Assembly (NCBI GenBank): GCA_035084275.1
Contig: CM068755.1
Coordinates: 9,858,001-9,922,000, forward strand
Reading direction: 5' to 3'
Source: Hydrolagus colliei
Lineage: Eukaryota
DNA length: 64,000 nucleotides
A program made the position numbers and the translations under genes. The stretch's first letter is position 1. Every line of letters begins with the position of its first letter. Positions 2,941 to 64,000 of the stretch are shown here, one piece after another. The notes below the pieces were generated by a model. It worked only from the letters and a program-made list of their open reading frames with translations, had not been told where the DNA came from and did no database searches.

Positions 2941-3090
2941 ATTCTGGGACACTGCTGTGTGCAATTTGCTGTCACATTTTGCCCACATATATAGTGTCAA
3001 TTGACTTTTTACAGTATATTCTGAGAAGCGCTTTGAGGTATCGAGAAGACATGAAAAGCACTATATCAAAAGCAAAGAGTATTTTTTATT
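2941..3090 (+). mobile_element. 5'-truncated SINE copy
   Basis: GCTGTGTGCAATTTGCTG...TACAGTATATTCTGAGAAGCGCTTTGAG matches the 3' half of the full copies. Confidence 0.75.
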
Positions 3091-3159
3091 ATTCTGTGAC
3101 ACAGCAGTTTGGAAAAACACGAGTCTTTTCTGGCAATGAGAAGTGGAGAGAGAGCTAGC

Positions 3160-10225: not shown

Positions 10226-13200
10226 GGGAGAATTAGGAATCACTATTAGGAAGTCAAGTTTGTGATATGTGAAGAAAGATGTCTTTCTTCACATATCAAA
10301 AACAAGTAGCATGTAGTACATGTGCTGTACCACATGCTCAATCCCCCTTGAGTGAGCCCTCACCTCCATCTGGTAAAACTGGTAATTTGACAAAACAAGA
10401 GAGAATTCCTCTGCTTCTTCCCCTCTCTGGCATTAAGGCAGAACATCACGAGGTGCTGTCACTCCCCCAATGCTGGCAGGACACAGCTAAAGACAGCAAA
10501 GCTGATTAGAATTGGATTCAAGTGGCATTATGGGCTGTGTGTGCTCAGTGCTGTCCTTTCATCTTTATTGAGCTGATGGGACTAAAAAGATATAAACATT
10601 ATAGCCACCCGTGCAATTCCATTGATAAATTTGCTGGCTTTATAACAGGTTTCTGACAGTTGTGGTGAATGCTCTTACTCGGTGTGTAAGGCGATAATAA
10701 AATAGAAATTACATAAAATAAATCAGTTTCAGCTTTTCAGCATTCATCTATGCTGTCACTGAAAGGAAACTCAAGAATGCTTGCCTTTAGTATTTTACTG
10801 CACCATCATTCAGCTTTTCAGCAACTTTGAAATTGCGTCTTAAAATAAAGTAAAAGGACAGGTTCCAACACGTGCTGGGCGGGCTAGTGTTGGTGACTGA
10901 TTGTAGAGGTTGTGAATTGCCTGTGACCAGGCTAGGTTGAGAGAGGGACAATATATATTTTCTTCTATGAAACCATTACAGTAACAGAAAATAAACCTGC
11001 TTCAGGAGAGGCAGCGTTGCTAAATAAACACAAAAATGTGATTTAACTGAATGCAACAAACCAAATTTTAGATGTAAACTCTGACTTGGTTCCAACTCAG
11101 GATGTCTGGTAAAGGCCCTGCAGGTCTTGAAAGACTTCATTGAAGAAAAAGGAAAGGACACAGATTTACTAACTTAACCTCATCATGTAGCAGTCAGCCT
11201 CCCTGCAGCAGCGACATCAGTCTATGATGAAGAGATTCCCCCCACCTTCCACCTTTTCAGGTTCCACTGAGGGATGCTGTGTGGATTTTCATCTCAATGT
11301 GGAGGAGTTTCTAAAATCTCCTCCTTGGCTTTGCTTGCGTCGAAACTAAATATCTCGGATGCAAATGCATTAATTGGAAGGCAGACATGTCACAGCTTCA
11401 TTTAAAAAATGCTTGTCAATTGTTTTTAGTTCCCACGCAAAGACATGGCTCCAGTTGATGTCACTTGCGTATGAGTACTGGCATTGTGACCCAGTGTGGC
11501 ATGACCGTCCCTTGCCCAGAGGGGAAAAAAAATATTCGCCAAGAACTTTTTCATGAAGATAATGACCCATAAAATCATCTGCTTCTCACAGAATTTAGCT
11601 CAAATCTCAGTGCTGTATTATTTCATGTTGAATCATGACTTTGGGAGTATCGTCATCGGCCGATTGATCCCTGAGAGTATCTATCTCTTCATTATGCCTT
11701 CATTATGGGATAGCGCATGATGAATTGCTATTGTTAGAAATCAGCAAAGGATATATGTATCGCACAGTTGCTACTGTTGGTTGTAAGGAAAGATTTGAAC
11801 CACAGCATCATTGGAGTGGAGCCTGGATTCAGCTTGCAGATGCCTGGAAGCCTTGTGGTCTTTAGTTCTGCTGAACTATATTTGGACAGAAAAGACATTA
11901 GCTATTTTCACAATCTGGATATTCCACATTAGCACATCGGCTAATAATATGAGTCTTAGCGGATGAGATTGCCTAATGCAAGAGCAGCAAAATGGATAAG
12001 GACATGCTTAAGTATAGCCAGGCTGCCATTATTCACATTAGTGCGAGAGCATAGTTTGTTCACAGACTTTATTAAATACAATTAGCCCATGATGCATGCA
12101 TGGCTGATGATTCTATAAGCAGTTAGACTGTATTTGTGCCTCTCTGCTCGGAAGCAGAAGGAAGTGTTACTGGGAATAATCAGAGAATGCTAATCATCCA
12201 ATCATATGTGCGTGAAGTGACTCGAACAAATTGGCCACTTACATGCCACTGATTTGTTTAAAATTCTGACAAAGCAGCTGCTAACTGGCAATTCATTTTC
12301 CTGACAATTTCTGTGATTACCCTGGGAGAAAGCACTACAGAATCAAAAGTGACAGAATTGTGAAAGTCTGGCTTCTGTGTTTGATTTTGCCATCTAAGCA
12401 GTAGCTCCTGTGTGTGCAGGTCTGAGCTATGTGTGTGTGTTTTTTTTTAAAAAGCATGTTTATTTGGAGTTTTATCTGCTAGAAATAAATAGTTTATATG
12501 CAAGTTCAAGGAAATTGCAGCTGGTGAGACTGTAAACGGCAAAGCTTTCCAACAGTGTAGCACGCGCTCTGTCAACTGCCTTATGTGTGGCACAATGCTG
12601 CCATTCACATCTCTGCAAAAAGGTTAACTTTATTTTTTAAACAAATCAAAAATTTGATGCAACCCAAAAAAGCAGACTTTTCTACTACAGCAACAGGAGG
12701 CCACCACTTGCTTTGGAAAGGTTGGGCTGCACACCGTTGTGATTTATTCAGATTAGTTTGGCGTGGACTATAGCTATAGGTAGTTGTTCAGTGTTGTTAT
12801 TGTCCATATTATGAACACCTGAAGAACTAGAACTGAATTATTTCCCATTCTTCATGCAGCAAAACCAAATGGGCCGAAAGGCCTTCTTCATCCAAACGTC
12901 TCTTGTGATCTCGTGTGATTGTTAGCAGACGGATGTGTGCATTCCTTCAGAAGGAGGAGCTGAACAGGATCAGCCTCTGGTTGCTGACTTTTCATGTCAA
13001 GCACTAGCTCAGCACATATCTAGCACTTCACACTGATAAACCACAGCCCTTAAAGCATGAGTTTGTTTTTGTGTGGGAACTATTCAGAATTGAACGAGGA
13101 AGTACATACCATCTACAATGGTACAAGGAATGAACACATGGATTCATTTGATGTACATATTTAATGAACTAGCTACAAAAGGACCTGCAGCATAATATAA

Positions 13201-19220: not shown

Positions 19221-22220
19221 TAGGCTAGTCAAAAATCATCTTGCCTGCAGAAGCTGCTGGAATTGAAAACAAGCCTTTCATTCAGCCAGCGACTGGCCTG
19301 AGAGAGACACTATCTACTTTTAGAGTCAGTCATTAGCTCCAGGCAAGTTTCATCAATTTAAATTCAGTTAATCAGGGATTTGGGTCCACTCAGTCTGATT
19401 TAAGTCAGTCTATCTGTGAATAGATCACTGGAATAACATTGAAATGGTTCCTAAATGAAAAAAAAATCAAGAGCAGGTAATGAAAGAATTCCTTTAGGAG
19501 AAGTTGCAGCTAGAGATGGGTACAATACAGAGAAAGGGATATCATGAAGAACATTGTTTTGGTCTTTTACGCAACCTTAGGGAATCAGTATATTTAAACA
19601 AAATTGTGCGGCTTTCTATTCTTTATCAGTGCAGAGCCAAATATCTCATTTCTGATTCCTTTTCAAAAGCAATGAGATGGGTTTCCTGATGTTATGAAAT
19701 TTTGCCGACAGTAAACTGACACCTGAAGAAAGCCGAGCTCTACATGTGTCACTCCATTGAAGCCTTCCTGTTTCCAACATCTGACTGATGTCAGTAACGG
19801 ATTGGCAATGTTGTCAGCAAAATGCCAATTAAGCTCATTAACTGGAAGGATTGATCCAATTAAAAGTGGCCACATTGCAGTTTCCGTATACTTAAATGGC
19901 CTGAGGGCCTGTTCTCCATGTCCCTGGAACCAAAGGGAAGAATTATTGTATAATCCAATCGGAGCTCAGCAATCTGGCATTTCCACAAGATCACAAGAGA
20001 AGTTTGGATGAAGAAACGCATGTCAGCCCATCTGATCTTACGCTTCCAGAATTTCCACCCTATCGCCCATCCATAACAACATCAAGGTGTTTTCTTTAGT
20101 GAATCCCAGCAGACTAGTTACCCACTCCATTCATTAATTACCTTTAGTTTTGTTGCCAATGTCTTTTAGTTGAAGAGTTGGAACATGAGTGGGAGGTTTG
20201 GGATAAATCTAGTTGCCACCAATTTAAATTTTTCTTAAAAAGACAACTGCTGTATCCAGGCAGAACTGCCAGGCACATCAGACTTAAACCTATTCCAGCA
20301 ACATCGCACCCAGAATAACCAATATAGACATACACACAATGGATATAAGGTTATAAGAATATAAGGATATAAGATAGATTGGTACAATAGGAGAGTAGGA
20401 TGGGTTGATGGTCAAGCAAATTGATAGACAGATGGTCCCATGGGAGCTGGAATCACTGGGAACTTGAACTGACAACATGAAAACTACACATTTAACAAAC
20501 TAGGGCTGTAACATTTGCAACAAAAAATCATGACTTTCTTACAGCCGTATAGATTGGATTAGCCTTATAAGATTGGACTGTCTTTCTCCTTTGATCAGCT
20601 CAGAAACCATGCCTTTACTGTTGGTCTCTGGTTATCACAAATACACGTATTTGTAAAGCAGGTAAAGCAAGAATAGTGGCATTTCATGTGTTTGCCTGAA
20701 CTATTTGTCTGGTGGGACGTCCTCCCAACGTGAATGGCGCTCTACAAGTGTAATTTTATTGTTTGCTGTTTTTGTGTTTGTGGTTCCTATGCTAGTCACA
20801 AATACCATAAATGAAGTTTCAGACTATAGACCTTTGAGCTTCTCCTTTCTCTCATCATAGTTCATTCTGGTAACACTGGGCATCAATCTTATCACTCTTC
20901 TCAGCAACATCTTCTGTGCCTGTATGTGTTATTTATGGCTCTGTGACATTAATACTCCTTGGTGTCTGTCATTGCATTTGGTGCAGCATAACATAGATAA
21001 TGCGCCCAGTCAGTAAAGGCATAACTCCCAACAGAATGAAGAAATCACAAATAAATGCAATTGTGTAAAACACTAATCTAATCTCAGGGTTCACATGGTG
21101 GTTAGAAACGCCAGCAGCTGTATTACATGAATAAAGATGTTCAATGAATAAACTGCTGGATTGATGCGATAGAAACCGCTCACCAATTTTACTCATTTTT
21201 AAAAAAATGTCTGTGTTGCTTCTCGCTGAATTTTTATTTCCCTTGTTTGTGGGATGTTTCCGGTATGGATTAGATGCCCTGTTGTTGTTGTTATTAGCAT
21301 AACAATGTATAAGGGGTAGTTTAAGAAGAAGCCATTCGGGCAATCAAACCGGCTGCTTCACAAACCATGTTACTCATCCCATCAAGGACCCAACCCGAGT
21401 CCTCAGTTTACTGAGGAAAGCGCTCCATAATGACATTATCAAAAGCAATCAAGCAAAAGTATTCATCCAACATCACACTTGCACTTTTCATCCCTGGCCT
21501 ACCATATATTCAGATAGCTTCCCACCACCCCACCCCCCCCACCAATCCCAGCTGCAATAGTACAGGATCCATTGTGTGCGTGAATGTAATTTAGTATCAT
21601 TGTGTCCTTGAGTGTACATTCAATATCTAGAACCTCCAATCCTATTTCTAAATAGATGTTTATTCAGATCCTTTCTTTCAAGCATTTGTTCATTGCAGAA
21701 TTGACTGATTTTGCATGTTAGGGCGGTGTAGAGGGAGCTTGGCTCTCTAATACTCCTGCTATGCCTGATGCAGGAGTGTTTGATGGGTGTCAAAACAGGG
21801 TGGGAATGTGTGCCACTCCTCAGTTCTGTTCCTGTTGAGCACTAAACATATAAAATGGTTTAAAATGTGTGTAACAAAGAGCTTTGCTTCACATTTACAT
21901 TTTAAACTATAGAGACAACTTGCTTGAAGGAAAATCTAGTCACGTACGAACTACTGCAGGAACGAAAATAACAAGGACACTCAAAAGAGATGACCGAAAA
22001 GGCAGCAGCGTATAGCTGGAGGTTCTCTGGCATCTTCTGTTTGGGCGGGTGTGTTACTTTTGACAACAATCCAGTGCGTTTCCAGGGGTGACATCATCTT
22101 AATGTGTCCGGCAGCTGTGTTTACTGGGGCATATGTGGCAGCCGATGTGACAATGTCGCGCATGACAGATATCCTTGAGAAGGCAAGCATTGAAGGCTTC
22201 CCCAATTCCAAGTTATCTAC

Positions 22221-22410
22221 AATAATAATACTACTGCTTGCGTTTGATATAGCGCCTTATCACATCTTCAAGGCGTCTCAACGAGCTTCACAGGATATAC
22301 TGTAAAGTGTCGGAACTGTGTACCTTGTGGGCGACACAGCAACGAATTGCGCACAACGGTGTCCCACAAACAATCGTGGATTGAGCAACCAAATTATCAT
22401 TATTATTTAT
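22221..22410 (-). mobile_element. 5'-truncated SINE copy
   Basis: TTTGATATAGCGCCTTATCAC...AATTGCGCACAACGGTGTCCCACAAACAATCGTGGATTG. Confidence 0.8.
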
Positions 22411-29730: not shown

Positions 29731-30111
<381 letters not shown>

Positions 30112-31224
30112 TAAACGGTGGGGAGTGTAGAAAGCAGTATTCCGTGCACCTGATATATTTCCTAGAATGGCAAATCTTCTCAAAATGCTTTACAGTAATT
30201 GATGTTAAGTACTTTGGGATGACCTCCCGATGTGACTGGCACTATACAAATGTAATTTTGTTGTTGTTCTTAAATATAATGACTGTGTATTGTAGGCAAA
30301 CACAGCAATAAATTTGTGTATAGATTTTTTTTACTCCCACCTGCACGGTCAGGCAATCACACCAACATAGCAATTCTTTGTAAATCCTGTGATTCTCGGC
30401 ACTCCTACTCCTACAAAACCAACTTAATTCTTTAGCAAGGATGAAAGGAAAAGGCCAATTTAGCTTGTTAAATGTCTACAGAGGAACCCCTGCAGCACTG
30501 CACAAATGAGAAGACGCAATGACCGAAGACTATTTCACTCCAAATAAGTTAGTGAAATGAAAGGGGGAGAAAATTTTGAACTGTAATGACACTTGTGCCT
30601 GAATTATACACAGGGAATTGTTTGAGGATACAGGTATTGTGACCATTAATGGATGTATCACAGAGGAAGGTGTTTCTTTTATTTTGTTATTTATACAACT
30701 GACCTTTTATGCTAGGCATTTGAAACAATGGCGTCTTAAATGGTGTATTGAAACAACAGTACCTTAAGTCATGCAGTGCTAATTGTGAATGTGGTTTGCT
30801 CCCACGTAGCTTGCTCCCTTTGTGTGCTGTGGCTCTTTTCCCGGCTCGATGTATCCTTGCTTGACCTTACTTGAAGCTCCAGAGTACAAGGTGTGCAGTT
30901 GGGAATAACTCTCTGTTTTCATCAATGGCAGACAGGCATCACTAGTGCTATCAGAGGTGCTGCCTGCTATCACTTGTTTAGAGCTTTATCATGTTACAGA
31001 ATTGTAGCAGTGGCATCTGTGGATTTGGCAACTCTCCTTCAAATGGCTTGTGTAGTCCTTCTCCAAGAAAGTTGAAACTGGCCCTGATTACATCTCTAGA
31101 GTATTGATCAGAGATATTCCTATTCTGGCTGTGTCCTGCTCATGTGCACAAGGCATTTACAAAGGAAAATAAAATCTGTGCTCCATTTCATTAGCTGTGC
31201 ACCATTTCTTAATGATGGAGATAA

Positions 31225-31672
31225 TAACAACAAAATCACACTTGTATAGCGCATTTCATGTCAAGAGGACGTCCCAAGGCGCTGGACAGTCATTGTTTCA
31301 GACCCGATTCAGGTGACGGGGAGAATGGAGAGAAAGGGGGGTATTTGGGGTGATCCACAGGACCGTCGAAGAGGAGGGTCTTGAGGCGGGACTTCAAGAA
31401 GGCTAGGGAGGGGGTGAGACAAAGGGATTGCCGGATGGAATTCCACAGGTTAGGGGCAGAGTGGCTGAAGGCTCGCCTGCCAATGGTGGGGCGGGGGTTA
31501 TGGAGCAGGCTGGAGCCTGCTGAGCGGAGTGGGCAAGCAGGTTGGTTGGGGGTTAGGAGGTTGCAGAGGTACGGTGGGGTGAGGCCATGGGGGGCTTTGA
31601 ATGTGAGTACCAGTTTCTTGAATTGAATCCTCTAGGTGATGGGGAGCCAATGGAGTCGGGCGAGGATGGGTC
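31225..31672 (-). mobile_element. L2 LINE 3' fragment (ORF2 C-terminus, 3'UTR, (TTG)n tail)
   Basis: Minus strand translates PILARLHWLPIT*RIQFKKLVLTFKAPHGLTPPYL...RAFSHSAPNLWNSI...LKSRLKTLLF, classic L2 motifs with an in-frame stop. Confidence 0.9.
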
Positions 31673-31696
31673 ATGAAGCTTGGAGTGGTAGAGGAT

Positions 31697-31820
31697 GATA
31701 ATAATAAATATATCATAATAATCCTTGCATTTTATGTAGCACTGTATCACCTCGTTGAGACGTCTCAAAGCACTTCACAGGGTATACAGTAAAATTGACC
31801 ATATTTGTGGGTGAATCAAC
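31697..31820 (-). mobile_element. SINE 3' tail fragment abutting the L2 fragment
   Basis: ATAATAATCCTTGCATTTT...GAGACGTCTCAAAGCACTTCACAGG. Confidence 0.75.
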
Positions 31821-34244
31821 ACATGACCCAACCCACCTTCTAGTGACATCTGATTGAATTCTATGTGACTTTGTAACATGCCCTGCCTGGAGTGCTACCT
31901 GCCTCTGTTTGAAAACATGATTACCACAAGCTCTACGCTTGGCAGTTCCTGCACATGTTGGGGTGACAAGCGTCCAAAGCAGGCTAGAGGCGGCACAACT
32001 CACAGCTCCAAACGTACCAGCGGCCTGGCTCATTGGCAGAACTGGAAGGGTCAGACTGGGAGCTGGTATTCTTCCCAATCAGCTCCCGCTAGCCCTGCAA
32101 GCCAAATCCATAAGCAGTAAGTTTGTCTTAGCTGGGCAAGCAGTAGAAAAATTGCCAGACAGTACTCTCAATAGCAAATTTTGTGTTTTTACCTGTTCAA
32201 ATTCCAGCAGTGCCTCAATGTACACTCTGGGGTGTCCAAGTCTTGGCTCTTGCCACCGGATGTCTGGTACTCTCTACACTCACAGCTCACTAGCCAAAAA
32301 TGAGCCATCTCTGTTTGTTCTAATCTCACTTTGACTTCTGCTCCACAGCTGCATTCCTGGTATTTGGAGGAATACAGTGGCTGAGTAAGTGGTTCTGAAG
32401 CATGAAATATTTATTATTGTAGAAGCATTGTCAGTGACTGATACGTTCTCTGAGAAAACGCATCGCTATTGCTCAGAAGCTGTATGTACAAATGCCGATT
32501 GCTGATGCAGCTTTATCTGCATCCGATTCAAAACTGTGTTGCCCAGATTACTAGAGAAGGAATTTCAGGTGTTTACAGAGTTGGCGTTTACAAAGCTGCC
32601 TTTCATAAGGACAGCTCAGAAAGTGAAGCAACATATAAACCAAGTCTACTAAATCTTTAATGAGGGAATTTTGCTATTGCACACTCTTGGTCCACTCCAG
32701 TCGTTCTGCGATCTTATCCAATGAATGGCTAAGCTGTACATACTTGGAAAGCCCGGGTCCGTGCTATATTAGCTGGTCCCAGCTAGCTGAGTCGGTCATA
32801 CATGCATTATAAGGTGGCTTCGCGGGCGCTCGGTTAAAGAAGGGACATCATCCAGACCTCCAACTCCGGATGGTAACAAAACAAGCCCAGTTTGAGATGC
32901 ATGCATGTGCAAACCACTTTTTACATACGTGCAGAAAGGAAATGAGATGCAGCAATTTTTCAGATTACTGCAGGCAGAGGAAGCACTGGACACATGGCGA
33001 CTTGCACCACCGACTGCATCTTTCTTTATTTGGTAACCTGTTTCTGCCATTGATATAAAGGGACTGAATGCGGAAGGGATGAAAATCATCTTACTATTTA
33101 CCAAGACTTCACTTAAAAGGTAAATCAATTCCCTTGCTGTTCTCATGATTTAAACAAAAAGGCTTGAAGATAAATTATTATTATAATGATAAAATAACCC
33201 ATTCTTGTGATATAGCGTCTATCATGCTGGGAGGACGTCTTGAAATGCTTAATAATGATAATAATAAGCTTTACAGGAAAGTGAGGTGATTGTGTAATTT
33301 GTAGGTACAGGTTGTACAATATCTTTGTCAAATAAAAGTAAATCATGCTGAAAGTAGTAAGAATCGCGTCAAGAATTCTCCAAAGAAACAGTGGCTTCAC
33401 ATCAGCCATGGTGCAACTGTCCTACAATCCCTTTACTCTAGTTGCTGGAGAGATCTAAAGAGATTTGCCTGGCAGTTTGCCAAGCTGCATCAAAAAAGGG
33501 TGGCAGATCTGGGCTTGTGTTACCAACAGATTGCCAAACAACCCTGCTAACTGTGCCTAGCCAACTGTGGGCATATTGATGCAAGGATGTAATGCGTTAA
33601 AGCCAATCTGCTCCGAACCAAATACACTGATCCCTCAGATGACGCTCTGCGTACCTTCTGTGTACCACAAAGGTGTGGGTGGAGGAGCTGAAGGGGATCC
33701 CTGCTAGCCCCCTAAGGCTAATAGTCATCCTTTCATGTTTTCCAGTTCAAGACATTCTAAAGGTTTTGGAGCATAAATAGTGGAACAGAACTGCCAGATA
33801 GTAAAAGGAACACTATGTTGCTTTCGGGATTGTGTATGCTTTTATTTATTGTGTTTAGATTATATATTATGTTTGTCACTCAATCTTTCAATTGAAAAAT
33901 CTTCTAGCAACGTGTTGTGTTTTACTCTTCCAGATGTAGATTCAATGTCAAGCAACAACACAACACAAATGGGAACAAGGATTGCAGGAGGACAGAATGG
34001 ACCTGAATCAGTAGAACCATCATTTGCCTCGAGCAACGTACTGGACCCGTTAGCCCAGGGCTGGCCAATCCCTCTTAGAACAAATCTTTGAAGACTGGTT
34101 TTCTCCATGAAGCCAAAGCAGTAGTTTCGAGCCACTTCTTTGGGTTGTTGCATAAACTGCTTTGACTTGGCTAAGGCTTCCCGTTCTGCAGGGTCTTGAG
34201 TGCAGCGGGTGTGTCAGAGCGAGCACTGAGCTCACTCAGTCCGA

Positions 34245-34463
34245 AAACAAAACACAAAATACTACAGATGCTGGGAATCTGAAACAAAAACAAAAGTTGC
34301 TGGGGAAACTCAGCAGGTCAGGCAGCATCCATGGAGAAAGGAAAAAGAGTCAACAAAGAGTCTGACGAAGGGTTGTAGACCCGAAACGTTGACTCTTTTT
34401 CCTTTCTCAATGGATGCTGCCTGACCTGCTGAGTTTCTCCAGCAACTTTTGTTTTTGTTTCAT
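34245..34463 (+). mobile_element. Non-autonomous Penelope-like pseudo-LTR inverted-repeat element with hammerhead motif
   Basis: 75-bp inverted arms 34280-34354 and 34388-34462 (73/75 complementary); flanking direct repeat TCAGTCCGA at 34236-34244 and 34464-34472. Confidence 0.8.
34355..34398 (+). ncRNA. Minimal type I hammerhead ribozyme motif (PLE type)
   Basis: CUGACGA (34362-68), extra A, stem II GGGU/ACCC, GAAA (34383-86), palindromic ACGU stem III, GUU cleavage triplet ending 34390. Stem I AAAGAGU/ACUCUUU needs a one-base bulge. Confidence 0.65.
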
Positions 34464-35194
34464 TCAGTCCGAGCTCACTATTGCACAGTAAGTGTCTTCT
34501 TCTGCTGCCTCTTGGGGAGTGGTGTGGGGGCAGGTTGGGCTTCCGGTGGTAGATGGATCTCTGTGTCATCTTCTCCAGGGTTGGCTCTGCTGGCCACTCT
34601 TACCACATGTACAAGAGTTCTCTTGCCCCACCCAACTCAAGTGATTAATCACACTCTATTTCCAGGGAGCTAATGAGATGCAAAAAGGAAAGCTTCATAA
34701 AGTATGTACAATTGATTAGATTCAACTACACACAAAGACCACAAACCTTTTTTTTTACAGCTTTGTTTTTTAAAATTAATTTTTAAATAACCCTGCAGCA
34801 AACTGTGTATTTTTTGCATCTCTGTGGCCGCTAACAATTATATATGAATAAATATCGCAGTTATTTAAACATGTTCTGACTATTGTGCTTTTTTTTGACA
34901 TTTGCGGCCAGCCATCACCGTGAGAAGCAAAGTCTCTCTCACTCTCTACACATAATGGGTCCCTAATTGCTTTGCCTCATTAGACTATGTTCCTCCTGAT
35001 TCTCTGGCTACTTCTTTGCTCTGGGTTATCAACCTTCTGCAGAACCCCATCATTTGTGATTTTTCCAAATAAAATAGGTTGGTGCGGGGGGAATCGAACG
35101 ATAACGTGACCTTAAGTTCAGCTGATCTTGTTGGTAACAATTCTCCAGTTATTCGCAGTTTGTGCAGTGTTCTGTCCTCGTGCTGTGAATATAT

Positions 35195-35312
35195 TAATAA
35201 TAATAACCCTTGCATTTGATATAGCGCCTTGTCACATCTTCGAGACATCTCAAAATGCTTCACAGAATATACTGTAAAGTGAATTGACTGTATATTTTGT
35301 GGGTGAAACGGC
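35195..35312 (-). mobile_element. SINE 3' tail fragment
   Basis: CCTTGCATTTGATATAGCGCCTTGTCACATCTTCGAGACATCTCAAAATGCTTCACAGAATATACTGTAAAGTGAATTGAC. Confidence 0.8.
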
Positions 35313-35515
35313 TTTGAAGATAAATGGCTATATCAAATCAGTTACGCATGCGTGCTTTTCCACTTCTAAAGTGTTATGAGTATTTTTTGAAAACATCCCT
35401 TGCTTCTGGGATTTCTATTATGATATGACGGTCTCTTTGGAGATTAGTGCGGGTTTTGTAAATCCTGTAAGATGACAAGCTTGTCTCAGATGGAGCAATG
35501 TGTTCTTTCTTGCAG

Positions 35516-53580: not shown

Positions 53581-53599
53581 GCCAACAGCCTTACATAGG

Positions 53600-53920
53600 A
53601 TAATAACAATCCTTGCATTTGTTATAGTGTTTTACACGTCTTCTAGATGTCTCAAAGCCCTTCACAGAATATACTGTGAAGTGAAGTTAATTGACTATGT
53701 TTGTGGGCGAAATGCGGCAGCCAATTGCGCACAGCAGCATCCCACAAACAGTCGTGGATTAAGTGACCAATTGTTTTATTGTTTATTGTTTTTTGTGAGC
53801 GATTATTATCAGGCGTGTGGAGTAAGGAAACTTGCCCAAAGTATCATCCTGCCTGGAATCGAACCCAGGTCTCTCGCTTGCAAGCCGAGTGCTCTAAACA
53901 CTGAGCTACAGGACTCCACA
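53600..53920 (-). mobile_element. Full-length tRNA-derived SINE (CORE-like + Deu-like body, L2-type tail)
   Basis: On the - strand: tRNA-like head with A and B boxes, body TTGGGCAAGTTTCCTTACTCC, GCTGTGCGCAATTGGCTGCCGC, tail ...AAATGCAAGGATTGTTATTA. Confidence 0.9.
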
Positions 53921-54369
53921 TAGTCAAAGGATAACATAAGATGACAGGTTGGACCAAACAGGGACAAAGGTAGGTTATCCTGTGGATTTATCCTGTGACA
54001 TCAGGTACTATATCAAATGCATAATAAAACATGCAATTGATATTGTGCTTTCCTGTCATTAAGATGTCTCAAAGAGCTTCACAGGATAAAGATGGCAACA
54101 GCTCAGCAATAGCTCCCTTCCTGTCCAGCTGGTGTTTATTATATTCTTCTCAAGTGCTTCTCCTCGACCCTATCCCTAGTCCCCTATCACAGGCTTTTCC
54201 GCCCTCCCATATCCCTCAACTCAGTTCTGTCCTAACCGTGTGTTCTTCTTTTTTGACACTGCCGGCCCCAAAACTGACTACAGCAGAGAATCGCTCACCC
54301 AAACCAATCATGCGAATCACGTCATCTGATTCTCAGCCGTGAAAGGGCAGGTGATGAAATTTGTTTGTG

Positions 54370-54675
54370 CAGTCCTGCAAGGGGTTAGAGCACTCGCCTC
54401 CGAAACGAGAGACGTGGGTTTGATTCCTGGCCAGGGCAAAATGAAATGTTGGACAAGTTTCCTTTCTCCACAAGCCTCCGTTTACCTAGCAGTAAGTAGG
54501 AACCCGGTTGTGAGTCGATTAGCGGATCACTTTTTCGGGGGGGAAAGGTTCCTTTAATAATAACAACCAAATTTATAATAAATTGGTTATTTAAACCACA
54601 AATGTTTGTGGGTCTCTGCTGTGTGCGATTAGCTACCGTGTTTTAGCCACAAAATCTACAAGACATGATAAGATA
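54370..54675 (+). mobile_element. Diverged copy of the tRNA-derived SINE
   Basis: Head GGTTAGAGCACTCGCC...GGTTTGATTCC; body CCTCCGTTTACCTAGCAGTAAGTAGG; decayed 3' part. Confidence 0.8.
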
Positions 54676-54678
54676 TCC

Positions 54679-54971
54679 TGTAGATTCCTGTAGCTCAGTG
54701 GTTAGAGCACTCGCCTTACAAACAAGTAGACCTGGGTTCAATTCCAGGCAGGGTGAAACCTTGGGTAAATTTCCTTACTCCACACTCCCAATAATAATCC
54801 CTCCGAAAAAATTGGTGACTTCAATCCACGACTGTTTGTGGGACACCGCTGTGCGCAATTGGCTGCCGCGTGTCGCCCACAGTCACTTCACTTTACAGTA
54901 TATTCTGTGAAGCACTTTTGAGATGTCTAGAAGATGTGAAGAGCGCTACATCAAATGCAAGGATTATTATT
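54679..54971 (+). mobile_element. Full-length tRNA-derived SINE
   Basis: A box TAGCTCAGTGG, B box GGTTCAATTCC; same body and (TTA)n tail as the 53600 copy. Confidence 0.9.
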
Positions 54972-55059
54972 ACATATCAAATGTAAGGATTGTGTTATTA
55001 TAATATATCAAATGTAAGTACAGTATAGTGTATTACTACTGTGATGCCAGACTATTCCG

Positions 55060-57739: not shown

Positions 57740-58085
57740 TGTGGAGTCCTGGAGCTTAATGGTTAGAGTACTCGCCTCGCAAGCAAGAAACCTAGGTTCA
57801 ATTCCCGGCAGGGCTAAATATTGGGTATGTTTCCTTACTCTTCATGCCTCTGTTTACCTAGCAGTAAGTAGGATCTGGTTTTAATCAATTGGCGGATTGC
57901 TTTTCTGGGGGTAATATATATTTTTAAAATTTGATAATTCAATCTGCAACGTTCATAGGACATTACTGTGCGCAATTGTATTTCGCCCTTAAAATATACT
58001 GACAATTCACTTTACTATATTAAGTGGTTTGAGATGTCTTAAAAATGTGATAAGGCATTATCAAATGCAAGGTATTATTTATTAT
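57740..58085 (+). mobile_element. Full-length tRNA-derived SINE in ICE2 intron 3
   Basis: Starts TGTGGAGTCCTG; B box GGTTCAATTCC; body TGCCTCTGTTTACCTAGCAGTAAGTAGG; tail CAAATGCAAGGTATTATT. Confidence 0.88.
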
Positions 58086-58171
58086 ACGTGTGTAAGCCCC
58101 ATATTAAGTAATTAATTTCCAGTCCCTAATGTGCACAAGCAAGAATGATAATGCAGAGTTGTCTCTTACAG

Positions 58172-62008: not shown

Positions 62009-63280
62009 ACAGAACTTTATTTGATTTCAAGCTATTTGTGGTGAATAAATTAAACCTTGTTTTAATACCAAGGGTGAGGGTTGGGCTCACTATTTTGGAA
62101 ATGTAGGTTTAGAAAAGGGATAGGAGCTGTTTACCATTGTTTAGACTTTTTCCCCATCTCTCTTAAGCTTCTGTTTTACATCACTGTTCACTGGCGTAGC
62201 AGATTCATTTTGTTTTTTCTCTCCACTTTCCAATCTCCGTTTCTGTTCCAATTTAATTTAATCAACTGCGGCTGATTATTCTTTCTTCTTCAGTCTGGGC
62301 CCTTCTGCTGGTGGCAGTTAAATAATTATGAATGTTGGTTATTAATAACAATATGACATCCGATCGATAAGTGCAGCTCTTTGTTGCTGCTGTTATTGAT
62401 CAGAGTGGTGGTATTGCCAGAACAACAGTTTCATGGAAGCTTTCAGATGCTGGACAGCCCGTTCGATTGATCTTTAGGAAATGGGCGAATGTTGGGAGTT
62501 AATAGAAAGGAGAGTGAATGCTTTTTCAGGAAGCCAAATATTGCTGCCATGAAATGTAGCTCTCATCCACATATGGCTTCCCAGCTATTTATGTGTAAAA
62601 TATTACATGCATTCCTCATGAACTACAGAAGAAACCAAACATATTATTTTTGTTTCAGTCAGACAGTACGATATTGATATCACTAATAATGCAAATATTT
62701 TTGTGAACAATTTGGACTGATGTTTTAAGAGAATAACCCAAGGCTAGTGAATTGATAAACGATTCACTCACTGTAATTTTTTTTCATCTTTCTGGTTTAG
62801 TGGAATCTAGACAGTCATCTTTTGCAACCTAATTCTATCAGAGGATACAGTCAAATAGTCAGTTGGAGTAAAGGCAAATCATTGAAAATTAAGTTCTGTG
62901 CCAGTGCAATCCATCCTCTTTCATCTTGTTTATCAGTGTAATGTCTGAAGGGCTTCTAGTTCATCATTTAATTCAAATTTTTTACTTTTAATTATTGCAT
63001 TATAATTAGAAGGACTGTGATAATCCAATTTAAGTCCTTGAAATAGTGAAGGGTAGTTAGGGTAGATAATTGATAAGGTATATCGTTCCCCCCTCTGATA
63101 GACAAATCCAACCCAATCGAATATTTTTAAAATTATAACTAAACAAAACCAGAAAACAGTTCTTAGCATTGCAACTGTCTGGAAACACTTGTGAGAGGAG
63201 TTACTGACTTCCTGTGCACATGTACATATAGTAATCAGGAAGTGACTTAAACCACAGCCACCACATACTCACACACTATT

Positions 63281-63642
63281 ATAATAATAATATCCCTGCA
63301 TTTGGTATAGTACTTTTATCAAGTCTTTGAACGACTCCAACGCTTCACAGCATATACAATAACGTGAATTAAGTGTATATTGAGGGCATAACCAGTAGCC
63401 AATGGCGCACAGCAGTGTCTCATGAACAGTCGTGGATTGAATGATTAAATGATTTAAATTTTTTTTAAGGTATTATTACCCTTGCAACAGAGATCCGCCA
63501 ATTGACATAACAACTATTGTTTGGTAAACAGAGGCATGTGGAGTAAGGAAACTTGCCCAACGTTTTGCTCTGCCAGGAATTAAACCCAGGTCCTCTCGCT
63601 TGCGAGGCGAGTGCTCTAACCACTAAGCTAAAAGTCTCCACA
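63281..63642 (-). mobile_element. Full-length tRNA-derived SINE in ICE2 intron 7
   Basis: Reverse-complement copy of the same family, from (TAA)n tail to head ...GTCTCCACA. Confidence 0.88.
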
Positions 63643-64000
63643 GCATGCATCCATACATCGATACACACAGATGTACAAATTTACTATTCAGAGAATGTGG
63701 GTGTGTATTATTGATAGGAGAGTTTTGAGATGTGTGTGTGTGTGTGTAAAAAAAAGAAGCAAGTTTGGTTGTTTATTGATCAGTTCCCACAGTTTGATTT
63801 TAAGCTAAGAAGCTGCTTTGAATTACCAGCTGGGATGCTTCAACACATAGCCCTTTCCAACATAAACAAATCAGCTATGCAGACTGAAGTTTGAACATTT
63901 TGTATTGAGTGCTATTCTTTGTGTTCAGCGCAGATTTTTTTCATATTCTCGGTATTGTGGTACGATCCAATGCATTTATTTTGGCACAGGCAAGTTCAAA

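Follow-up and report, generated by a model that had tools for sequence, protein, structure and literature searches.

The insert found in an intron of RORA within the window (the whole 64-kb stretch of DNA analyzed here) almost certainly consists of two short pseudo-LTR ends of a Penelope-like element (PLE), joined head to head and with a 35-nt tail on one arm only, since its arms belong to a repeat that terminates an element encoding reverse transcriptase (RT) and a GIY-YIG endonuclease. It is an ordinary insertion scar, whose architecture has already been published for PLEs, and the PLE-type hammerhead that it carries is real, an ordinary element of a known sort, and likely inert. The RORA locus itself is of minor significance, being one of thousands of similar scars, and its contribution to RORA pre-mRNA is probably just a stable intronic hairpin. 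The only part that may be new is the population pattern of copy ends. These end statistics bear on how PLEs make inverted, one-tailed insertions and on the role of the hammerhead, both of which are called open in PMC8557442.

RORA coding exons start near positions 492, 26620, 29845, and 35516 on the + strand, with a zf-C4 match at E 8e-19. The best PDB match of a downstream exon is ROR-alpha (E 3e-21), compared with E 2.5e-16 for ROR-gamma. The insert lies between the third and fourth of the coding exons found in the window, in a host intron with approximate bounds 29987-35514 (+ strand); these exon positions place it in intron 3, counted from the first coding exon in the window, with the hammerhead motif sense to RORA, as in the original prediction. 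The insertion is probably common to the genome of the window and at least one other organism, because contigs cross its junctions: one from organism B spans the left junction into the tail, and one from run X7 spans the right junction. The left-junction flank in organism B carries about 2% substitutions (12 in 573), a level that agrees with the insert’s arms, where 2 differences occur in 204 columns. An empty site, which had been suggested as a check in related species, was absent from the 15 joints listed (111 more exist) in contigs of three DNA runs. One poly(A) single-cell RNA run from another organism contained 6,097 reads of the family on both strands, with 0 reads in the flank and no pile-up of read ends, a result that is uninformative. 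As a separate observation, the T-rich end of the right arm and the target duplication together form a sequence resembling a 3′ splice site, ending at 34467 (window 34440-34495), and a donor-like GTAAGT stands at 34488. A cryptic 20-nt exon is possible at 34467/34488, where the flank is without reads in that single RNA run of another organism.

The insert contains two inverted arms of 75 nt each, at 34280-34354 and 34388-34462, with 2 mismatches and a 33-nt loop between them, exactly as first described. Their overlap produces a 75-bp hairpin (34280-34462, + strand), identified by inverted-repeat and fold computation, with a fold of -144.6 kcal/mol (z -18.5); none of 200 shuffled sequences folds as stably. 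A target-site direct repeat encloses the insert, with copies on the + strand at 34232-34244 and 34460-34472. The repeat was already recognized in the original prediction, but at 13 bp (12/13 identical) it is longer than the 9 bp given there; according to the direct-repeat search, the first 3 nt of its right copy are shared with the end of the arm. The left arm extends 35 nt outside the hairpin (34245-34279, - strand), and this tail, present on the antisense arm only, is recognized from the bimodal 3′ ends of the family and from the 30-40-bp tails of published elements (PMC8557442, PMC3846280, PMC11167929). With the tail included, the antisense pseudo-LTR end occupies 34245-34354 on the - strand, corresponding to -3 to about +107 from the cut site, and shows 0 differences from the per-column majority of the family over 106 columns. 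The tailless sense end, at 34362-34462 on the + strand, aligns to the family from -29 to about +70 and shows 2 differences over 98 columns. Between the two lies a junction segment (34355-34361, + strand) that repeats left-arm positions 34344-34350 and acts as the apparent 5′ strand of stem I in the RORA copy; the native family sequence upstream of the core differs from it. Alternatively, this segment may represent extra bases followed by the native first 3 nt with one base lost, with the same outcome.

The family to which the arms belong is large. Exact matches to the 29-nt core number 757 in the genome, and those to a 25-nt arm word 2,970, while reversed controls gave 0. Of 882 candidate copies, the best 40 were scored and were 87-94% identical over most of their length. 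Direct repeats of 8-18 nt flank 37 of the 54 short insertions searched, a count made without a shuffled control. Both the genomic copies and the target duplications anticipated for them are present. At 40 loci around core matches the 5′ sequence varied, and 8 of 44 matches run on into a common longer sequence that leads to frames for a GIY-YIG endonuclease, a CX4CxxC linker, and an RT. When loci were found by ORF DNA, 28 of 30 ended in the repeat of the RORA insert, and 19 of 30 loci with the 5′ part of the ORF have a pseudo-LTR directly upstream. A pseudo-LTR stands at both ends of the ORF in L130, a near-full copy with a partial repeat and tail on the 5′ side, the ORF, and then the repeat again on the 3′ side.

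Atlas matches to the parent are RT clusters (0.93-0.98), and translations of three loci (L132-L134) have the composition of an EN+ Penelope-like element. Pfam matches in the parent lie under the cut-off (RVT_1, E 3e-4; GIY-YIG, E 5e-3), two other parent fragments gave no Pfam match, and a PDB sequence search with the RT fragment returned nothing relevant. Three cores on contig 1 have weak PF01541 matches at a distance of about 470-490 nt on their upstream side. The best PF01541 matches were considered as the parent and rejected, as they come from a separate PLE family that gave no blastn match with the RORA element. The RT and GIY-YIG partner foreseen in the original prediction was found as frames but not as an intact copy: all 7 long loci read have stops or frameshifts, in searches that scored the best 40 candidates. 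Judged from sequence, the RORA insert is the 3′ end of a protein-coding EN+ PLE with RT, Zn-linker, and C-terminal GIY-YIG domain. The linker points to a parent that would be of the Neptune/Nematis type, in which a CX2-5CxxC linker precedes the endonuclease (PMC8557442); the name Neptune is inferred from the CX4CxxC linker only. A sister subfamily (L207-L236) has 726 exact core matches, and in it C-G replaces the U-G pair that closes stem II.

The minimal hammerhead of the RORA copy occupies 34362-34395 on the + strand. Its core is formed by 34362-34368 and 34383-34390, with a predicted cut after U34390. A34369 is unpaired, GAAA stands at 34383-34386, stem III is palindromic, and the 3′ strand of stem I is 34391-34394. 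Stem II (34370-34382) is better drawn with 5 bp (34370-34374/34378-34382, one of them U-G) and a 3-nt loop. Rfam, proposed as a check for this motif, gave no hammerhead match at E<=10 for either the RORA copy or a family copy in its native context. Because Rfam detects none, the call rests on the core sequence, with its 757 exact genomic matches, and on the published descriptor of minimal hammerheads from metazoan PLEs (Cervera and De la Pena 2014, PMC4209133). These features bear out the assignment to the minimal type I hammerheads of Penelope-like pseudo-LTRs: the conserved core, stem II, and palindromic stem III are all present in the RORA copy, as are the unpaired base before stem II and the G-C first pair, and the family has a native stem I of 4 bp. 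In contrast to the published motifs, stem II has 5 bp, U occupies the cut position, and the 5′ strand of stem I is replaced or shortened in the RORA copy. The sister subfamily turns one stem II pair from U-G to C-G, and a G-C pair of stem II is A-U in 3 of the 100 rows listed and broken in 3 of 100; the search pattern fixed the stem, so this covariation is weak.

Stem I sets the RORA copy apart from its family. The family’s own stem I has 4 bp and no bulge, while the RORA copy has a 7-bp stem I made by the junction, in which 34355-34361 pairs with the right arm because it is a further fragment of the inverted copy, and in which G34391 has to bulge out next to the scissile bond. The one-base bulge noted earlier is thus needed in this copy, but it is a peculiarity of the junction. 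A stem I directly 3′ of the cut, as in the published minimal hammerheads, is absent from the RORA copy. Among the 95 family arms described below, 48 span the core, 26 have it intact, and 16 of these also retain such a stem I. Fold prediction agrees with the earlier view that the hairpin and the hammerhead are mutually exclusive. It favors the hairpin over forced hammerhead helices by 14.7 kcal/mol, which upholds the suspicion that this copy may be inactive, and it assigns stem I a pair probability that stays at or below 0.11 as the transcript grows and is 0 once it reaches 34402. According to these models, the ribozyme would very probably be inactive in RORA pre-mRNA, folded away in the hairpin, and the hammerhead is likely to be an inactive passenger. 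A microRNA reading of the hairpin was also considered and rejected: all Rfam microRNA-hairpin matches are far under their gathering scores and reflect the stem.

A selected conformational switch, in which the hairpin masks an active ribozyme in RORA pre-mRNA, is highly improbable, even though the folds exclude each other, the core is intact and sense to RORA, and the left junction of the insertion is also present in contigs of a second organism. The end of the left arm, to which meaning had been attached, is just one of many endpoints: a single arm of the 95 ends at -4..-2 from the cut site, near that of RORA. Stem I arose at the junction and requires a bulge adjacent to the cut, the 64-kb window holds no second hammerhead core of the PLE family that could act as a partner, and in PMC4209133 monomers are reported without cleavage and dimers with little. 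Conservation across arms is no higher in the core (95.2% in core columns, 95.6% in non-core columns, p 0.61), and the cores of family hammerheads decay neutrally; the excess conservation that might have been expected of a functional motif is absent. The switch is therefore unsupported: the endpoint is incidental, stem I is made by the junction, and the cores are no better conserved than their neighbors.

The ends of family copies were mapped in 64 insertions with 95 arms, chosen without regard to the core; the sample comprised the first pattern matches on contig 1, minus 6 second matches of one insertion and matches already analyzed. Such samples are first-listed matches on contig 1 (plus contig 2 for the test of the preceding G described below), and they favor young copies because an exact 25-mer was needed; some solo insertions in the sample conceal a decayed partner. 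The 5′ ends of 37 of the 95 arms fall at -36..-27, the 5′ edge of the hammerhead, and those of only 2 within 2 nt of the cut site. The stop rate at -36..-27 is 0.105 per nt, compared with 0.0075 downstream (14x) and 0.0034 upstream (31x). The 3′ ends are bimodal, at about +61..+76 and +97..+111, approximately 35 nt apart, and most copies are 100-140 nt long. It was predicted beforehand that ORF-bearing copies would share the 5′ edge, and this was borne out: among 30 ORF-bearing loci, 7 extend as far as the core edge, of which 6 (3 of them in the sister subfamily) have their ends at -31..-36 and 1 ends at -160. No description of this pile-up of 5′ ends was found in the literature searched.

Position -33 is the first base of the native stem I and lies in an initiator-like (Inr-like) context. 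A TATA-like box lies about 31 nt upstream; it is weak and a poor match to the consensus. A G precedes A(-33) in 46 of 100 copies (the first 100 of 189 matches), compared with 7 of 100 (the first 100 of 190) at the control position one out and 8 of 56 two out, all hand counts. When only G and A are compared, the figures are 46/77 against 15/49 in the pooled controls (p 0.002), with no difference from one control position alone (8/16). In the solo copies with a single base between the duplication and A(-33), that base is G in 3 of 3 (60 loci examined). Some of the preceding G’s are microhomology with the other arm (L253), and the ends of duplications carry an uncertainty of 1 nt. Junctions at -34..-27 could also be promoted by a mini-palindrome located there. 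A splice acceptor at the -33 edge was considered as well and rejected; an AG and a pyrimidine tract are present, but there is no common upstream exon at -31. Since the 5′ ends pile up at the edge of the hammerhead, not at its cut site, and often follow an extra G, the RNA of this PLE family likely starts right at the ribozyme and would be copied uncut.

The same edge bears on the proposal that the insert derives from a separate, retrozyme-like short element. A distinct non-autonomous master of SINE- or retrozyme-like type, reaching from about -33 to +105 and mobilized in trans, would give a sharp 5′ edge and would suit the length of most copies (100-140 nt). At five loci (L309, L317, L319, L321, and L324), two pseudo-LTRs follow each other head to tail at a spacing of 130-290 nt, and a preprint derives animal retrozymes from PLE pseudo-LTRs (10.64898/2026.07.22.740005). 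Such a master is nevertheless improbable: in longer copies the repeat adjoins RT and GIY-YIG sequence without a break, the majority letter of 39 short arms is also that of 30 long arms at all tested columns but one, the 5′ edge is common to ORF-bearing copies, and the RORA copy has a single core and is not tandem. Animal non-LTR retrozymes are defined as tandem repeats arranged head to tail, every unit of which carries a hammerhead (10.64898/2026.07.22.740005). The RORA insert is like them in being non-coding, hammerhead-bearing, and PLE-related, but it is arranged head to head, has a single core, and does not consist of tandem units. The short units at the five loci comprise a pseudo-LTR piece, 130-290 nt of the ORF start, and a second pseudo-LTR that starts at -33..-37; these units have the appearance of products of run-off and a subsequent template jump and resemble retrozyme-like dimers.

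How two ends of a coding PLE come to be joined head to head is indicated by the paired arms. Exactly one tail is present in 26 of 31 arm pairs (p 2e-4), two tails in 1, and none in 4. In 8 of the 26 one-tailed pairs, as in the RORA copy, the arms are non-nested, i.e., neither contains the other. Arms within a pair differ by 10.3%, and those of different insertions by 11.2%; the arms of a pair share minor alleles more often than expected (17 vs. 8.9, p 0.0075), a modest excess. This excess would suit self-priming, in which a single cDNA, or an antisense template, would have folded at a junction palindrome and served as its own template, the asymmetry arising from later deletion at the hairpin tip. 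Palindromic or duplicated filler at many junctions is in line with that route, and self-priming from junction palindromes has been argued for rotifer Penelope elements (PMC3846280). We regard it as unlikely, given that the second arm stops in the +61..+76 window, as solo untailed copies do, and given the single tail in 26 of 31 pairs and the non-nested arms in 8 of 26. One-tailed, non-nested pairs favor two priming events over fold-back copying, while central or tip deletions after insertion could mimic non-nesting under fold-back. Overall, head-to-head PLE ends derived from two cDNAs primed on uncleaved RNA are the best and a probable explanation.

The whole mechanism, combining a transcription start at about -33, staggered cuts, two internal primings, and cDNA joining, is moderately likely. 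Transcription of the RNA would start near -33, where native stem I begins, as the initiator-like context, the TATA-like box, and the excess of G suggest. The element’s protein would cut both target strands with a stagger of 12-16 nt, and the RT would use each nick for internal priming, one at about +105 and the other at about +70. Both cDNAs would extend toward the 5′ end of the RNA; most copies would be 100-140 nt long because the cDNAs run from internal priming sites to that end. The 3′ ends of the cDNAs would then be joined via microhomology or filler, giving the hairpin. A more specific version, which we hold tentatively and at slightly below even chances, places the hammerhead right at the 5′ terminus of the capped transposon RNA, uncut during copying: internal priming 70 or 105 nt beyond the cut site and run-off would give strong-stop-like mini-copies, and a protein dimer priming from both nicks, perhaps with two RNAs held by the stem III palindrome, would give head-to-head hairpins. 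Pseudo-LTR tandems and retrozyme-like dimers would likewise arise, by a template jump after run-off. Should the RNA begin at the ribozyme and be copied uncut from two internal sites, solo pseudo-LTRs, tails, inversions, and tandems would all be covered by one model.

The geometry of LINE-1 twin priming differs from this, as in the PLE family both cDNAs overlap on the RNA and start internally. The likeness lies in inversion by two priming events and in an extra G at full-length 5′ ends; in LINE-1, untemplated G marks capped full-length insertions (PMC4859970). A canonical EN+ PLE insertion comprises a pseudo-LTR, an adjacent inverted 5′-truncated copy, a 30-40-bp tail at one end, and an 8-10-bp duplication (PMC8557442, PMC3846280). 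The RORA insert resembles this unit in its inverted truncated copy, 35-nt one-arm tail, target duplication, and parent with C-terminal GIY-YIG. Unlike that unit, both of its partners are ends of about 100 nt without an ORF, and the duplications of the family are mostly 12-16 bp. For Poseidon of Anolis (PAc), two internal priming sites define the tail in vitro, both target strands are cut and extended, and the RNA that serves as the main substrate is uncleaved (Frangieh et al. 2024, PMC11167929). The family’s two groups of 3′ ends, ~35 nt apart, match these two priming sites. In contrast to Poseidon, which lacks it, the parent of the RORA insert has a CX4CxxC linker, and its long frame begins after the tail, whereas that of Poseidon begins inside stem II (PMC11167929). 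No report of a 5′-end pile-up for Poseidon was found in the consulted part of that paper.

Another PLE family, apparently intact and likewise with a C-terminal GIY-YIG, was encountered in tandem arrays at L135 (G000:C38:38500-48400) and L136 (G000:C21:18684000-18693900). The units of these arrays measure about 5.5 and 6.6 kb, are 99.5-99.95% identical, and occur together with telomeric hexamers, of which there are 74 and 90 per 9.9 kb. An upstream frame of 485-566 aa overlaps the 783-aa RT-endonuclease frame. Telomeric location has been tied to endonuclease-less PLEs (PMC8557442), and no telomeric array of a PLE with GIY-YIG was found in the literature searched; these arrays are probably more interesting than the RORA insert. 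Further matches to PLEs of this type occur near the ends of C3, C13, C18-C21, C24, C26, and C27.

Two other features were observed in the window. A 46-nt near-perfect palindrome (91%) at 10258-10303 is unrelated to the PLE insert. Another dispersed repeat, with many old copies that are 70-90% identical, is found at 2942-3106, 22210-22410, 35181-35308, 53589-54988, 57740-58096, and 63268-63646.
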